Source: Bispira polyomma
Taxonomy: Eukaryota
DNA length: 64,000 nucleotides
Assembly (NCBI GenBank): GCA_965649765.1
Contig: OZ287752.1
Coordinates: forward strand, 53,258,001-53,322,000
Direction: 5' to 3'
In this document: piece by piece, positions 23,246 through 32,517 of the stretch
Layout of the letters: each line of letters begins with the position of its first letter
Position numbering within the stretch: position 1 is the first letter of the stretch
The notes under the pieces: model-generated
The model's input: only the letters and a program-made list of their open reading frames with translations
Databases searched by the model: none
Told to the model about the DNA's origin: nothing
Translations under genes and position numbers: made by a program

Positions 23246-25532
23246 AAACATACACATATGGCGAAAAGCCGATTGCTCTCAAGGTCAAACATGATTCTAT
23301 CATAGGGAACGAGGCACTGCTTGAGTTAGGACTTGGGTTAAGTTTACCGTAATGTTCGGACAAGGCATATAAAATTAAACCAACCTTAAACTAAGGTGTC
23401 TCACTGACACTATAACTGTAACCTTACCTTAAGTTAAACTAAGTGAAAGGGTGACACCTAAATTAACTTGACCTGAACTTCGCCTATGAGACTGTTGGAT
23501 ACATGAAAATCATAACATGAACACTTCTTTTGATAAGGAAAATCGGTCAGTGACTATATATTGTTTTAGACAGATATTTTAGTGAAAACACAACATTACA
23601 GGACACAGGTCTATAGTTAGACAGATATACAATGAATGCAAACACAATACTAAAATAACAGTCACTACAGGTCACACCCCCATTCACTTTAACCAGATGG
23701 GTATTTGATTTTGTCTGGCAGCTCTGCCTAATGCTAGGACACCCACCAGAAAGATTTTTCATTCAGACAAAGCACTTGTTTGTTCCAGCTGTTATGAGCT
23801 ATATATATATTAGTGTGTCTGGAGAATCTTTGTCACAAAGAAAGAGATTCTCGTGACATACCATTATGAAAAGAGACTCTGTCACCTACACAGGAAATTC
23901 AGAGGACAGTCTGATTACAGACATATAAAATATCTTTGTAAAAAGAAAGTTATGTTGGGGTTTGACACCTTCAAGTGAAGATTCAAATAATATGGTAACT
24001 TAAATAACTGACATCAGATTGTTTCTTTATTTTTAATATCTTTCTCATATCTCAGTCTAGGATACCTATTTACTTCTACCTTAAATTTTTTTCCAAAGAA
24101 GAAAACAGTGCATTCACAAGTTTTTTCCTTTAAAAAATTGAAGATCTGGTAAGTCAGGTATAGAAAGAAATGAGATTTTAAGTTTAGTTTTTAAATATTT
24201 CAAATATTGTATAAATACAGTAATAGAGGAGTACTATGGTTATTAGATGTATACATTTTAGACTAGTCCATTCTTAGTTTTAAATCATTTAACGTATATA
24301 ATTACTATGGTGTTATTTTAAAGTCCTTCTATATGTACAGCGCACTTTGGCTGAGTGCTGTATATTGAAGTGCAAATATTACTCTGCACAATTTTATTGG
24401 ACCCTAAAAGTCTGGGCAATAGCTTCTATCTGGGAAGGTTGGCAGCAGACTTGGCTTGAAGGCCAGTTCCTTGCTGTTCAGAAACCTTGACCAGCTACCA
24501 TGTTCTGCTTTCTTTTGCCAATAAACTACCCTCAGCGATGTATGATGCACTTAGGCAATGTATTAAAAGGCCACTTTAAACCTAAAATAAAAAAAAAATA
24601 AAAATTTCAATAGTTTACCTAACTTCCCATAACCTACCCACATTGTATGGCTCTATCTTCAGCAACATTTTTTTTATCTAATCAACTACTCTAGTTTGTA
24701 TATGATGATATTTGGTCGATTAGAAGCCGTCAATGCATTTTATTCCGAGACATACAATGTGAACTCCTTCCGATGAACATCATGTTGTATCTAACAAACT
24801 ATTTTTTATCAAAACAAATACTCTAGCCCTTATACAATAGTCAATTGACTAGCAGCTGCCAATGTTTCACACTCTTAGATGTTTATTATCAAGCAGTTGA
24901 CACCCCCATACTTACCGGCAATACTATCTTTTTGTAATAGATTAGTACTGGTATAGTTTCAGTTGAAAATTGATATGAGGTCATTATGACTTGTATTTGT
25001 TTTGTGTCAATGTTAGCGAACTGGAGCTATCTATAATCTGTTACTGAGAATGTTCTTCGTTATAGAAAAATTATCATTCTCCAATTATCTCTCTTCTATT
25101 GAGGAAAGAGAGGAAAAAGACTTCTAAAACAACTAAGACGGCTATATCTACAATTTTCTCAATCATTGACCATATGTTGTAGAAGAGTCTCCCAGTTAAG
25201 CTTAGATCAGCAGAAACTGCATAGCAAGTCCACCCCAGGGGACTGCTAGATCAGTCCAACCTCCTCTTTTATCACTCTACTTTAATCCCTAGCGAATGCA
25301 ATGGCATTATCCAACTTTCTGTCCATCTGGGCCTTGTCCAATCACAGCATTAGCTATTAGTGACCCCTAAGCTAGGATAGCTATCCTCCATATTGAATTT
25401 GTGTTTTCACCTGTGAACAGGACATTTAGAAAAACTGAAATTTTAACCACGTATTTACACTGAATTGGTTTTATTTATATTTTATTCTTTTATTAACTGA
25501 TGTGGTACGGGAACTAGTGATTGTTGTGTGAA

Positions 25533-26741
25533 ATGGGGAAAACAAAAACAACTCCCGTGTTAAGCAGCAAGAAACGGACCAACAAGGACAACTTCAACTA
25601 GCACAGCCAAAAAAAGGGGTACTGGTCAGGTAACTACTACAAATAATCACGATCAATCAGAAATACATAGAACAGTCATTGCCGACACCGCGTGTCCTAG
25701 TATTGATTCTCAGTTATTGACCAGTTCAAATGGATCATCTAGCCAAGCCGGGCTGTCATCTCAGGCCGTACCCCAGTCACAAGTCGAGTCACAAAGCATG
25801 TCCGAGGTTCTTTCAATCCTGCGTGGTCTGGAGACCTCCAACGCTAACATAACTCGTAGAGGACAATCAGACAGTTACACCTGCTAATTCTCCATTACAC
25901 ACCATGAGGGATGGTACGGTGGTCCAACAGAGACACAAGGGCTATTCGTTACCTCTTCCCCCTCCCAGGTACAACGGGGTCGCGCAGCCTCTGGCTCAAC
26001 CTATGATGCAACCACCAACAGGTCAGGGTTACAACACAGATGGCATTGTCCCCAGTCTCGATGCGTTAAGATCTTTTCCAAACGTGCAGGCGGCCGTTAC
26101 CAGGCAGCTGGCTGACTACGAAGCCTTAGCCCAGAGGGGTCTAGTCCAGGGAAATCACTCAATCAGGCAGAAGTCTGGTCGTTATAACTCCACAGATATT
26201 ACTTTAGCTGATCCCAAACTCAGATGGTCTAACGAAGGTTGGGGTGGGGGATCGACCCGTCGAAGGCCAGTCTTTGACGACCTCACGTTGCCGCAGTGGG
26301 CGGCTGGCCAGCTGGCCAACTCGCTACAAGTAAGTGATCCGGTAACAATGAAAGCTATGGTGAACCAAGTGGTACACGCATTACGGGATGCAGCCACACT
26401 TCCGTGGCCTGCTGTCAGGACAGCCTGGGCTGTCAGTATGCATGACATTGAGGAAGGCAGGCTGTCCTGGCAGGACAACACTGAATCGCATCAGTGCCTC
26501 CCAGATGACTATGGTAGGCAACAATGGCAGTAACTTGGCTAACGGGGCTTCTTCAGAAAGTAAATCCATCTGTAAGCTGTTTAATAATGGCAAGTGTACT
26601 CACAAGGCGGATCATGGCAATTATCGTCATGTATGTTGGTATTGTAATAAGACATTAGGAAAGGACGCGTCGCACCCAGAATTCAAATGCTTTAAAGCGA
26701 ATGTAAGTAAGCAGCCAGACAGACAACAAGGTAACATCTAG
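25533..26741 (+). pseudogene. gag-like ORF of the DIRS-order element (frameshifted)
   Basis: ATG at 25533. Pieces include ORFs 25904-26533 and 26388-26741: 'KSGR', 'FDDLTLPQWAAG', 'WPAVRTAWA...IEEGRLSWQD' and a C-terminal Cys/His finger 'CKLFNNGKC...HVCWYC...HPEFKC'. Confidence 0.8.
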
Positions 26742-27703
26742 GGCCACGATTCACAACCAGTTGGACGAACATTAGGTAGTGATAAGGGTAATTCAGTGAT
26801 GAATGGTAACAGTATATTTGTAAAAGAGTTTAATATAAAGTACGAAAACAGTGAATTAGGTTGTTGGGACAGATGCATGTCTGCAATTAACACAAATGGG
26901 CAAAGTTCCAATAGTAATGATTGTCAGCATATGGTAATGTCAGATAGTACAAGTTTTGTCAATAATGTATTCAACACTGATGTTAATGTGAACTTTGTTG
27001 ATAATGATGTCTTTAATAATATTGCAGTTTCAGTGGATGCTGGCGACAATTACCAGTATGAAACCAACAATGTAAATGAATGTATTCAATTTCAGAGCAG
27101 GACCCAGTCGGGTCACCATAGATGGGACAGTAGCACTGAGGGCTGCGTTTCAAATGGGAGCAATCACTATGCTAATTTACCAGTTTGTAACAAAGAGACA
27201 CACACGTGTCAGGTATCAGTCACCAATTGGAAAACTTTTTGTGGGGAAATTCAAAACTTGGCCCCAATTGTTTACATTAGGGATAGGGATGCAAAATTCT
27301 CAGGTTATTTCCACATGTTTTATGATGTGACTGCTGCCAGGTGTATATATGCTCGTGTTGAATTTCCACCTAGCCAAAACCTTTGTATTATTCAAACCTT
27401 TCAAACCATAATCCAGGTTCAAGCTGTTTCTTTAAATACTACCAGTTATACTAATGTGGAAACTCATCACCAGGCTGTAGCCAAGCAAGCTGCTGATACA
27501 TTTTATTATTTCGAAAGAGATAATGCCTGTTTGAAGCAGTTGGGGTTTTGATTATACTGAATACATGACCAGGTTAGTAGATGCACTTATTAGTGACAGC
27601 GAAGATGAAACACTTGACAATTGCCATGAGTCAGACAATTGTGCAGACTTGCTAAATCTAAGTACACAAAAACCAAGTAAGGCTGATTTGTGTTCAAATA
27701 TAC
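26742..27703 (+). pseudogene. Unassigned coding region between gag and RT, probably a long N-terminal extension of pol
   Basis: Open from 26742 to 27551 in the gag frame. An overlapping open stretch (WGFDYTEYMTRLVDALISDSEDE...) bridges to the RT ORF. No recognisable domain. Confidence 0.55.
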
Positions 27704-29519
27704 ATGAACTCGTCGAGCAACGAATTCACCCAAATGGTTGATAGTGTTCGAGCAAACAAGGATTTGTACAAAGAAATTAAGGACTTTAATGACCTCGAGA
27801 AAACCATGGGTTTCTTAGCACTTTCCTCAACAGCATTCACATTCACAGGTCTTGACAAACTTTTTAGAAAAATTGAAACAGTAGAAGACATGCTGCAAGT
27901 GGCTTCTGTTATCAGAGACACTGCACTTCCCAATTATAAACAAGCAAGGGTTCCCCTGGTGTCAGGACTTAATCCAGATGCATGGGATGAAGTTTTCCAA
28001 GATTATCCTGACCAGTTGCTGTGTCAGTATATTAGATTCGGTTTTCCTCTTTCTCTCACCAATCCAAAAATGCTTAACATTGCTTCTGTCACCAATCATT
28101 ATTCTGCCCTCCAACACACAAGTAGTGTAAGAGAATATCTGGTTAAAGAAAGTAATAAGGGTGCCATGTTGGGCCCAGTGAAGGAGGTTAGCTCCTCACA
28201 TTATCATTGTTCACCACTTCTCAAACGTCCCAAGGACATTACTAGTCGTAGGGTAATTCTTAACCTCTCATACCCACAAGGCAATTCGCTTAATGAGAAT
28301 GTTGATAAGAATTTATTTGACGGAAAAAAATTTATTTTGAAATTTCCTACAATCGATGATATTACTAGTGCAATCAAAGTCACAGATGATCCAGTATTGT
28401 TTAAAATCGACGTAGCTCGCGCTTTCCGTAACTTGCGTATAGATCCTGTCGACGCTGTAAAATTAGGAATCCAGTTTGAAAAGGGTAGTTACATAGATCC
28501 TGCAGTAGTGTTTGGCTGGATTCATGGCAGCGCTGCGTTCCAACGCTGCTCTGATGCAATAGCGTCATATATGCGCAAAAACGGTTTCAATATGTTCTGT
28601 TACATCGACGATTACATTTGCGTCTCGAATAGAGCAGAGGCTCATAGGGGTTTTCAGATTTTGACCAAACTGCTAGACTATTTAGGTCTCCCCATGAATG
28701 CCAACAAACGCACCCCACCTAGTACTAGTATTACTTGTTTGGGCATTAACATTGATACTGCCGCTGGTACTATTAGCATTCAGCATGAAAAAATAGAAGA
28801 GATTCTTGAATGTGTGTGTGACGTGTTTAACAGGCGCTTTATAACGCGCAGTCGTTTCCAGTCCCTCTTAGGGAAACTTCTGTATGTGCACAAGTGCGTC
28901 AAGCCGGCACGCACTTTTATTAATAGATTGCTTCACACGTTTAGAAACAACGAGGATAAGAAGAAATTTGCTATTTCTCAAGACATGCATGGTTCAAGCG
29001 GTTCTTACAGACATTTAACGGAGTAACTTACATTGACCCTCCTATTATTCAAAACATGAGTGAGTTACATTTAGACGCTTGCCTTACCGGTTTAGGAGGC
29101 GTGTGGAAAGATGAGGTGTATGCTACACCATATTTCAATGTTTTTGGCAGAGAGTTGACAATAGTTCACTTAGAGATGCTGAATATAATTCTCGCGTTGC
29201 GTGTATGGGCGTTAAAGTGGGCGCATCAACGGATTTTGTTTCACTGTGACAACATGGCCGTAGTACTGGTTGTGAATTCACAAAAACTAAGGATGACTTT
29301 CTGGCATCATGTTTGAGGAATATCTGGCTGCTAGCAACCACACATGACATCACAATTGACATACAACACATTCCAGGGAAAAATAATGTGATTGCAGATG
29401 CTCTATCTAGACTATTTTCAGATAAACCTCCTACTGCAGTGCTAACTATTGAATTACAAAATTGTTATAAATGGAATGAGGTCCCTATAAAGTACTTTGA
29501 CCAGGCTTTATCTGTGTAA
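27704..29519 (+). pseudogene. Reverse transcriptase - RNase H of the DIRS-order element
   Basis: RT motifs 'RRVILNLSYP', 'LFKIDVARAFRNL', 'FGWIHGSAAFQR', 'CYIDDY', 'CLGINID'. RNase H motifs 'DACLTG', 'HLEM', 'CDN', 'HIPGKNNVIADALSR'. Frameshifts near 28985 and 29280. Confidence 0.93.
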
Positions 29520-29527
29520 TTTCAGGT

Positions 29528-30499
29528 TCTGCCAGTTCCACTCACACACTTGTTCAATCAGCCTGCAACAGAATAGACTTGGCACTGCGACCAAAGACCA
29601 CTTCGGCTTACAGTAACCAATTTAAGACATTTTTAGCTTTCTTACATGTTGCAGGCATTAAACACATTAATGTTTCATCAGTTCTGGCCTTCTTAGAATA
29701 CTTAGCACAGAATAGCCTTTCACCGGCTGTCATTGCCAATTACCTCTCATCACTTAAATTTATGGCTAACAAATTACAGTGGAGTATAACTCCTTTTACA
29801 CACAACTCTGTTTCTTTATTTACGAGAAGCATTACCATCAACTCTACTTTCAGGCCTAGACCTAAGGGATTGTTTGATATACATCAGTTAACACAGATAT
29901 CTCAAGCTTGTCAGATATTGCAAGATCCAGTACTTTTTAGGGCTATTTTCCTTCTAGCCTTTTTCGGCTTCTTGAGACTTTCCAATCTGGCTTCTCATTC
30001 TAGGGCAGCGTTTGACCCATCTAGGCACTTTCTTAGACAGGATATTATCTTTGCCCCACCTGGGGCCCATGTCATCTTGAAATGGGCTAAGAACCTTCAA
30101 AACAGATCAGACTCCCACATTATACAAATTCCTGTACTTCAAAACCAAATTTTATGTCCAGTAAGGGCTATACAGCAGCTTATCTTGTCTAGGCCTCTCT
30201 CTCCATCTGCACCACTTTTGGCAGTTAACTCACCACCATTTTACCCAGTCATAGAGACTCATGTGAGAGTCGCATTACAGAGAGTTTTAGAACACATAGG
30301 TATTCCATACCATTCACACGGGTTCCATACATTCAGCAGGTCGGGGGCCACATTTGCCTTCAATAGAAATGTATCACTGCAGATTATTATGTCCCATGGC
30401 CTTTGAAGGTCTTCAGCTGTATGGACCTACCTACAGAAGACCTCCCAAGCTGCTTCAGTGGTGCCTCTCACCTTTGCTGTGGCTATCCCCCCTTCTTAG
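29528..30499 (+). pseudogene. Tyrosine recombinase of the DIRS-order element
   Basis: 'FFGFLRLSN' (catalytic R), 'KWAKNLQ', 'LCPV', 'GFHTFSRSGA', 'HGL*RSSAVWTY'. The conserved Trp is mutated to TGA at 30404-30406, and the original stop is TAG at 30497-30499. No ATG start; the ORF is preceded by a splice-acceptor-like tttcag. Confidence 0.92.
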
Positions 30500-32517
30500 T
30501 TGGGCTTGGGGCTTAAAATTCCATCCTGAAATTTTAACTGACCTTGGTTGTCAACCTGTACATAAGCTAACATGTAAATAATAACCTCAAATGGAATCTT
30601 TTACTGTCTTATAATAAATTTACCTATTAACTTATAACTTATCACACCACCATTGGACTGACTTGTGGGTTTAGCAAAAAGATCCAGTATAATGTCAAAA
30701 CCAATGTGACAGTCCTGTTGAATAGACATACAAGCTGCAGGTTTCGACCCATGCACAACTTTGATTTTTTTACAGCCTGAAAAGTCAGATTGAGAGACAA
30801 TGCTTTATGCATAGGGTGTTAATCTTTGTTGGACATATATTCGTCAGTAGGCTTTTCGGTCACATTATTGCAAACTCATAGTGTTGTCGACGGTTTGCAA
30901 GGCTTTTAGGTCAAGCAATGTTATCAATCATTGTCGCAGATCTTCATGGATCTTTGTTGATCCAACAATCGTTTTGATCTTGGCCAGATTTTCCTGTATA
31001 CAAGTGATCCCTTTTTACTACCCTGAAGGTCTTCAGACGTCCTTAATTAATCTTTGACGTCTTCTTTAGGTCTTCTTTAGGTTGTGCCTCCACTACCAAA
31101 CCAAGGTGTTTGCTAGTCTAGCATAAAGTTGTCCTGGCAGAGTGGCAGATTCTCAGGAGACCAATTCAGTCTTAAAGGTGGGGAAATATACTAAGATCCT
31201 CTACATTATTATTTATTTTAACTTTTTTACAACATTGGTGCATTGTACCATGGCAGAGATACATGCATGATAACGGATCGCCGAGAACTAATTTACCCTA
31301 GATGTATGTGGTAAGACCTGTGGTGAAGTAGTTGCATGTAGTCATTGGTGGTCTTTATAGGATCACAACTAGTTCCTGATTGGTTGCAGTAGAGGAGCAG
31401 TAAATAAAAGTCCTTTATCCAATCACTTTATTGGTCAGCGACATATCGTGCAAGTGCTCTAGGGTTGTTTGCAGATTGGATTAAAGATCAGTCGGTGTCC
31501 TATTGTGAAAGCTGCCGCCCGACACCATGCATTTTGGGTCCATTACACTGATTGGTAACAAATGTTATATGGCTTCCTGATGACAAATATTTAACCTATG
31601 GGATCACACGACTGATAAAACCATTGTACATTTTTTCACCACTTCAAACCATGTTGCTGAGTTGCTGAGGCTTTCTGAAAAGGCTTAAGTAGAAAGTCGT
31701 AGAAAGGAATTACTTGCAAACACAAATTTCTAGGATGAAAACAAACAACAAAGAAAACCTGTTTAATGAGTTATTAGGGATTGATAAATATTTCTAGCAA
31801 GCTATTTTGATTTTATGCCCCAGGTTCTCATGAAGTGGCCATATCTGATGTGTGACTGGGGCTTAAAGAGAGAAGTGTATCATTTTCTAGATTTTTCTCG
31901 GGGATACATGAAAATCATAGTCATTAGAAGTAAGTTTTGAAGAACATACTACGCCTAATTAATACCTTTTAATTAGTAATGGTGATTACCATTTGATCAT
32001 CGACCTCTCGACTTCCCTAACTCATGGTTAAAATACATTATGTTAAAGTCATTTCCTGTATTATGAGTATCATTAATAAACAAATCCTCCTTTATTTCAG
32101 CATGTTTTATTTTTATTTGTCATGTCACAGCAAATTAAACTTTCAATTAACACTTTTTTTTAATTAAAATTTTCTGGAAAGTGTATGATCAACTAAATTG
32201 ACAAATGGTAATCATATTCCAGAGTAGTGGTAATTAATATGCTGTAAGAATCACATTCAATTTTCCCAATGTCTTCTGATTGTGTTAGGTGTTTATCTTT
32301 TTCTCCTTCGCATATTAATCCTATTTTGTGTTTTATTTAAAGTTCTAATAAATGTTTTATAATCTCGACGGGGGAGGACTGGAGGGGGTGGAAACCCGGT
32401 ACTAAGAAATATCAGAAGAAAGAAAAATATCTCCTGTTTTACTTAGAGTCCTCCCGGAAATCAACACCCTGTCATGAAACACCATTGCCTGTCTATAAAA
32501 CTTAACACAGTCAGACA

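Follow-up and report, generated by a model that had tools for sequence, protein, structure and literature searches.

Predicted spliced Gag-recombinase fusion and long-range helix behind the gag stop codon in an Ngaro-like retrotransposon of Bispira polyomma

The stretch of the Bispira polyomma genome analysed here comprises 64,000 nucleotides of contig OZ287752.1 (assembly GCA_965649765.1, positions 53,258,001 to 53,322,000) and is referred to below as the window, in whose coordinates all positions are given. It carries on its forward strand a 5.4-kb retrotransposon (25218-30660), which begins with a split direct repeat of 223 nt, A1 (25218-25440), that in full copies is matched at 95-98% by A2 directly behind a second repeat, B1. 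The first open reading frame (ORF1, 25533-26741) is gag-like; it gave no Pfam match, and its translation contains a C-terminal Cys/His knuckle. Its stop codon is a TAG followed by G in the frame of pol (26739-26742). The second frame, pol (26742-29519), consists of a long variable N-terminus, a reverse transcriptase (RT) and an RNase H, and its stop is followed at once by an acceptor-like site (29517-29527). Behind this site lies ORF3, encoding a tyrosine recombinase (YR), whose putative exon (29526-30499) would hold 323 codons behind the junction codon if unbroken. Pfam matches above the cut-off were obtained for RVT_1 and RVT_3 in pol and for Phage_int_SAM_1 in the YR, while Phage_integrase, the catalytic domain of the YR, matched weakly (E 0.056). 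The window copy ends with the 154-nt B1 repeat (30507-30660) and is without A2, the spacer and B2; the layout A1-gag-pol-YR-B1-A2-spacer-B2, with all frames on one strand, is found in most of the 39 family copies and in many diverged ones.

The repeats, together with the absence of a detectable methyltransferase, suggest that the element is an Ngaro-like YR retrotransposon. Split direct repeats are described for Ngaro and PAT elements (PMC4157794, PMC9210276), and PAT-like elements also share with the element described here a Cys/His knuckle in Gag (PMC4157794). PAT elements, however, carry a methyltransferase domain behind RNase H, for which no Pfam match was found in three long pol frames, and pol extends about 35 residues beyond the RVT_3 match. 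The PAT-like label was rejected and the class called Ngaro-like because no methyltransferase was found. The inverted terminal repeats and internal complementary region of DIRS1-like elements were absent from ten family copies, where self-comparison on both strands gave direct repeats only. As far as the available parts of the accounts of Ngaro describe it (PMC4157794, PMC9210276, PMC3783388, PMC8547959), the likeness extends to the arrangement A1-ORFs-B1-A2-B2, the order of gag, RT-RNase H and YR, the lack of a methyltransferase and a YR that slightly overlaps pol in the -1 frame. The differences are the roughly 870 nt between A2 and B2, the lack of an SGNH hydrolase ORF in the four copies checked, and a YR predicted here to be expressed from splicing rather than frameshifting. 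Gag and pol form one frame across the TAG here, whereas gag and pol of the Xenopus elements DIRS-53/54_XT overlap. Those same parts of the four accounts make no mention of splicing or readthrough, and in the available part of PMC7192593 introns appear only as reporter introns.

The window copy is dead. Its gag lies in three pieces, its pol is frameshifted and its YR contains a nonsense codon (30404-30406); relative to one natural copy, the indels fall after 25580, 25850 and 26481 in gag and after 27541, 27682, 28986 and 29281 in pol. Because all three genes are broken, this copy makes no fusion protein. Unbroken copies have a gag of 410 codons, the TAG, about 930 pol codons in the frame of gag and a YR frame of 332 codons. 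The copies used for comparison came from searches of the 1.04-Gb genome, each DNA search having the best 40 of its 82-474 candidates scored. For the element's own family there were 474 candidates, the best 40 of which matched at 96-98% identity, and 39 other copies were fetched. Conservation among such close copies, which are 94-98% alike, cannot show selection, so diverged copies were also fetched: 60 copies with 61-85% YR identity, forming 20 families at an 85% DNA cut, and a held-out set of 40 further copies, of which 38 fell into 14 new families and two into old ones. A query with the YR gave 12,918 first-look candidates in the genome, and there are at least 35 families of this kind of element.

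The initial annotation of the window had proposed that the YR, lacking an ATG start of its own, is expressed by a splice that fuses it to Gag and removes all of pol. The lack of a start codon holds: the YR frame of the window opens 8 codons before the acceptor-like site, and its first ATG is 79 codons behind it. The proposed acceptor, with its exon start at 29526, holds as well. It reads TTTCAG|G in phase 1 (29525|29526) and is followed by 17 open codons (29528-29578), and an AG, as YAG in phase 1, is present in 39 of 40 own-family copies. The general form is TTNYAG|G, and YAG|G was found at the same place and in the same phase in 57 of the 60 diverged copies, representing 19 of 20 families (it is deleted in L146 and mutated in L150 and L172), and was kept in 39 of the 40 held-out copies, which brings the overall count to 33 of 34 diverged families. 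The codon over the acceptor, read in the YR frame, specifies Ser, Ala, Thr, Val or Leu, and its third base is always A; the position at -4 is free, that at -3 is a pyrimidine and the AG is fixed. Because the amino acid varies while the third base stays A, the constraint appears to act on the RNA or DNA and not on the protein. The acceptor is strongly supported, its conservation being far beyond chance. The pol stop stands 6 nt ahead of the YR exon in nearly all copies. In a survey of the YR frame over 33 families, in which a pattern search gave no site for L146, L147 and L269 and mis-picked L182, the first ATG was at least 56 codons behind the acceptor in 23 families, inside or behind the N-terminal SAM-like domain. 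Among YR proteins from other genomes, the motif [IL][SPL][GD] was present in 23 of the 25 matches long enough to cover it.

The donor is another matter. The initial annotation had paired the acceptor with CAAG|GTAACA (26728-26736, GT at 26731), a site 11 nt short of the end of gag, and had set aside the nearby AAT|GTAAGT (GT at 26703) as out of frame. The phases were read correctly, the first site being in phase 1 like the acceptor and the second in phase 0. Comparison of copies points instead to a strong phase-1 donor at Gln-Gly|Lys about 600 nt before the gag stop, common to all 17 long natural gag frames scanned. In the window this site lies at 26148-26156 (exon end 26150, junction 26150|26151), 580 nt upstream of the donor first proposed, and it was hidden because the window copy is mutated to GA there. 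The GT is present in 33 of the 35 own-family copies that hold the site and in 36 of 37 mapped held-out copies, and GGT is present in all 47 mapped diverged copies (13 were not mapped). When one copy per family is counted, the donor Gly codon is GGT in 19/19 and the next Lys codon is AAG in 17/17; by comparison, the commonest codon reaches 32-59% at six further columns of conserved Gly, and at seven further Lys columns the codons are used about equally. On a generic donor matrix, the family mid-gag site scores 5.3 bits against 2.4 bits at 26731. Dominant contigs from three sequencing runs (DNA-like, from one study and at most two samples) agree with the family at the mid-gag donor, and Gag proteins from other genomes show [QLE]G[KR] in 8 of 9 matches. 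A structural model of Gag with a mean pLDDT of 44.7, too low for a fold search, has the donor fall where a helix (residues 187-209) ends and a loop follows, which is a weak hint only. Both ends of the putative GT-AG intron keep their consensus beyond coding need, and both are in phase 1 throughout. In several families there is, in addition, a phase-0 donor-like site around gag codon 32.

Our results suggest that a spliced RNA would join the first 210 gag codons to the start-less YR exon, skipping the back half of gag and all of pol as an intron of 3375 nt (26151-29525) predicted from the two conserved phase-1 sites. The product would comprise Gag residues 1-210, a junction Gly and 323 YR codons, or about 534 residues. 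From Gag it would retain the N-terminus, which is basic, and a long helix predicted at residues 88-115 in the same low-confidence model, and it would be without the zinc knuckle. We give a splice from the mid-gag donor to the YR a probability of about 0.8 as the explanation of these observations, and that a splice takes place is very likely. The idea of a spliced Gag-YR fusion lacking pol is thus likely to survive, with the donor moved to mid-gag and the Gag moiety shortened to its front half. What the Gag half does is a more tentative matter: with its basic N-terminus and its predicted coiled helix, it may take the recombinase into the Gag particle or into the nucleus. In most families Gag starts (window 25533-25640) with Met-Gly and then a basic stretch, which may act as a myristoylation or nuclear signal and would be passed to the YR in the fusion.

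Several points weigh against this splice, which is predicted from DNA. The 189 loci (some of them redundant) that contain the YR N-terminus included no intron-less copy, and the joined form was not found among the listed joints of the DNA-like contigs, an exact-junction search of the whole genome not having been run. No open frame of about 530 codons explained by the joined form was present among 134 and 150 YR matches; one YR frame of 517 codons was considered and rejected, as it is a frameshifted pol end. No longer protein holding the YR was scored in a gene-caller protein collection, which is weak evidence. Ten of 33 families have an ATG 9 codons past the acceptor, and in 32 of 33 the frame of the YR is -1 relative to that of pol, as a frameshift model expects.

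Frameshifting by -1 from the end of pol was thought probable for the Ngaro YR by Poulter and Butler in 2015 (as quoted in the available part of PMC13003380), and besides the frame relation, a short overlap of pol and YR would favor it. The same -1 relation, however, also follows from the fixed 6 nt between the pol stop and the acceptor. The overlap is 4 nt in all or most copies of eight families, and there is none in family d9, in which the YR continues the frame of pol beyond the stop. Three of 33 families have a slippery heptamer, and frameshifting leaves the invariant AG and the mid-gag GGT AAG unexplained, so we regard it as quite improbable.

The donor 11 nt before the gag stop, which would join nearly full-length Gag to the YR, is a very improbable source of the recombinase. 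All 35 own-family copies that cover the site have it, as does the nearest family, and it could be a minor, family-specific second donor. Elsewhere, however, the conservation that holds for the acceptor and the phase does not extend to it: a GT is present there in 3 of 32 other families, with CAG|GTAAC in one of these, the nearest family. No family has a phase-1 donor of at least 4 bits in the last 25 gag codons on the same matrix, and a stronger, universally kept donor lies upstream. Its phase match is not beyond chance either, because the last 40 nt of gag contain three GTs, of which one in three would fit by chance, and a second phase-1 GT is present near the gag end at 26707. The sites at 26703, 26707 and 26731 were rejected as donors, the first being in phase 0 and none being conserved across families. 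Least plausible is reinitiation or internal initiation near the pol stop, at an overlapping ATGA or at the ATG nine codons in: the initial annotation had held that an ATG-initiated YR would speak against splicing, and while the own family has none, that ATG is present in the ten families noted above, an ATG overlaps the pol stop where TGA follows A (family new3 and two single copies) and many gene-caller products from other genomes start there, but most families have ATA, GTA, TTA, CTA or GTG at that place and no ATG for at least 56 codons, and a gene caller shows only the cases with a start codon.

The end of gag is conserved in a different way. TAG followed by G, with pol in frame, was found in 35 of 35 own-family copies and in 82 of the 91 diverged copies whose gag end was called; of the nine exceptions, three are calling errors in d9 and the others are broken copies. 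At least one copy is open from the TAG into the RT in 15 of 33 diverged families. The first Met of pol wanders between codons 11 and 142, and this variation argues against a start of its own for pol. Behind the stop, an inverted repeat in the window pairs 26748-26761 (+7 to +20) with RNase H codons behind the DN motif at 29264-29277, about 2.5 kb apart. Other families have the predicted helix too, in different letters. When only a protein motif was used to place the far arm, and copies without a called TAG-G or the motif were excluded, 233 of 266 cells pair in 19 families, compared with a mean of 200.5 and a maximum of 221 in 20,000 trials with shuffled partners and with 60-137 in slid registers. 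Compensatory changes on both sides are found at +8 to +11, +14, +17, +19 and +20, and 46 of 47 copies pair in at least 10 of 14 cells. In a position-blind scan of 18 aligned copies, the helix was the best of 8,559,453 window pairs (0.949, the next being 0.861). A family's own far arm beats those of other families (-25.2 vs -19.1 kcal/mol; permutation p ~1e-5, uncorrected for kinship), as it does in the held-out families, nine of 14 of which passed the motif filter (-28.3 vs -19.2 kcal/mol). In several held-out families the helix contains a bulge and is extended toward the stop. These comparisons make it highly likely that the helix forms in the RNA. A reading of the bases behind the stop as a TMV-like CARYYA motif was dropped, because their complementarity to the far arm accounts for them.

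Structure-stimulated readthrough is recognized by an in-frame stop in a conserved context, followed 7-12 nt further on by a 3' structure that is also conserved, and all these features are present. Gag-Pol is likely produced by readthrough of the gag UAG, stimulated by the predicted 2.5-kb helix, and we lean toward this role for the helix. One transcription unit would then yield three proteins, namely Gag from the full RNA, Gag-Pol by readthrough and the recombinase from the spliced RNA. Certain observations count against the readthrough role and the helix itself. The shuffles ignore the kinship of the families, and the changes are unmapped on a tree. In the fixed register, d10 has 5 of its 14 cells paired and d17 has 10, and the helix of new11 is weak, being beaten by 12 of 220 windows. 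In Candida Tca2, which has an in-frame gag stop and a predicted pseudoknot, the local sequence is reported not to have given readthrough (PMC2194720). Both arms of the helix also lie within the predicted intron, so a role in splicing would fit as well. On that alternative, which we consider unlikely though worth weighing, the helix would bring the ends of the 3.4-kb intron together or set the spliced share, or would serve reverse transcription, and pol would be expressed by another route, for example by a splice that uses the same donor with an acceptor downstream of the gag stop. The far arm is 250 nt before the YR acceptor, and a phase-1 AG is present at +18/+19 behind the stop in about half of the families (18/34 labels). 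However, the base at +19, an A in many families, changes in step with the far arm, so that this AG seems to be a side effect of the pairing. The sequence that follows is variable for about 300 codons, yet the near arm keeps to +7 within a few bases, and the stop is TAG-G throughout. The TAG|G itself was rejected as a pol acceptor, being in phase 0 with 19-56% pyrimidine upstream.

In Moloney murine leukemia virus, env is a third protein made from a spliced RNA, and the donor lies before gag, so that no half-Gag fusion results; the element described here has no Pfam match to env, protease or DDE integrase. Going by the available parts of the cited papers, here and for the other viruses below, this virus also resembles the element in having a gag UAG followed by G, pol in frame and a structure about 7-8 nt behind the stop (PMC3159437, PMC13517186, PMC5009743). 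That structure is a compact local pseudoknot, whereas the helix predicted here has its partner 2.5 kb away. In murine leukemia virus the UAG-G is given with a pseudoknot 8 nt on, alphaviruses have stems 8-12 nt on (PMC3159437), and UAG-GG contexts are said to need such a 3' structure (PMC13517186). The distance has a counterpart in the plant RNA virus CIRV, a tombusvirus, in which a stop in UAG-G context depends on the long-distance PRTE-DRTE pairing (~3.5 kb) for readthrough into the polymerase (PMC3234231, PMC13517186). In CIRV the far element is in the 3' end of the genome and pairs with the bulge of a local stem-loop, while in the element here the far arm is in RNase H codons, would pair directly with +7 to +20, and has a predicted function. 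The alphavirus 3' readthrough stem (PMC3159437) is similar in its 11-12 bp, in its 8-12 nt spacer and in having been found via synonymous-site conservation and compensatory changes; it differs in its UGA-C context and in its loop, which measures 100-150 nt, the element here having TAG-G and a span of about 2,500 nt.

For the expression of pol and a start-less recombinase in elements of DIRS order, the one proposal seen in print, taken here from a quotation, is frameshifting, and an expression scheme like the one suggested here was not found in the literature searched. We see an even chance that the clade runs a retrovirus-like expression program without being a retrovirus, in which a spliced half-Gag-recombinase is combined with amber readthrough switched on by a 2.5-kb helix. 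If so, only a full-length, unspliced RNA with an intact pol could make reverse transcriptase, which would amount to a built-in quality check of a kind so far known from plant RNA viruses; none was found for a retroelement in the literature searched. The scheme makes exact predictions, namely one RNA junction and a Gag(N)-YR protein of 534 residues, which biochemical work on these recombinases would need. Because half of the signal is 2.5 kb away, such a readthrough signal would escape short reporter inserts. As a speculation, this may bear on retroelements in which the local sequence gave no readthrough, such as Tca2.

Other observations concern the structure and surroundings of the copies. 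The opening of pol (window 26742-27700) consists of about 300 poorly conserved, Asn/Ser-rich codons before the RT and has no family match. Truncation at exactly B1, without A2, the spacer and B2, is shared by the window copy and 7 of the 39 family copies (L035, L037, L043, L052, L053, L060 and L062), and these copies look as if excised at the internal B-A junction. The spacer between A2 and B2 (for example, 870 nt behind A2 in L039) is G+C-rich in its first third and has no frame of more than 85 codons in four copies, and the locus L188 (5973-8367) contains a tandem repeat of the B1-A2-spacer block at 100% identity. Fragments of related elements are found a few kb or less from L045, L067, L136, L152, L173 and L186, a hint of clustering or nearby insertion. 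Elsewhere in the window, a tandem array of about 110 units of 29 nt (49724-52965), which are 89-91% alike, is the source of a strong local GC skew.

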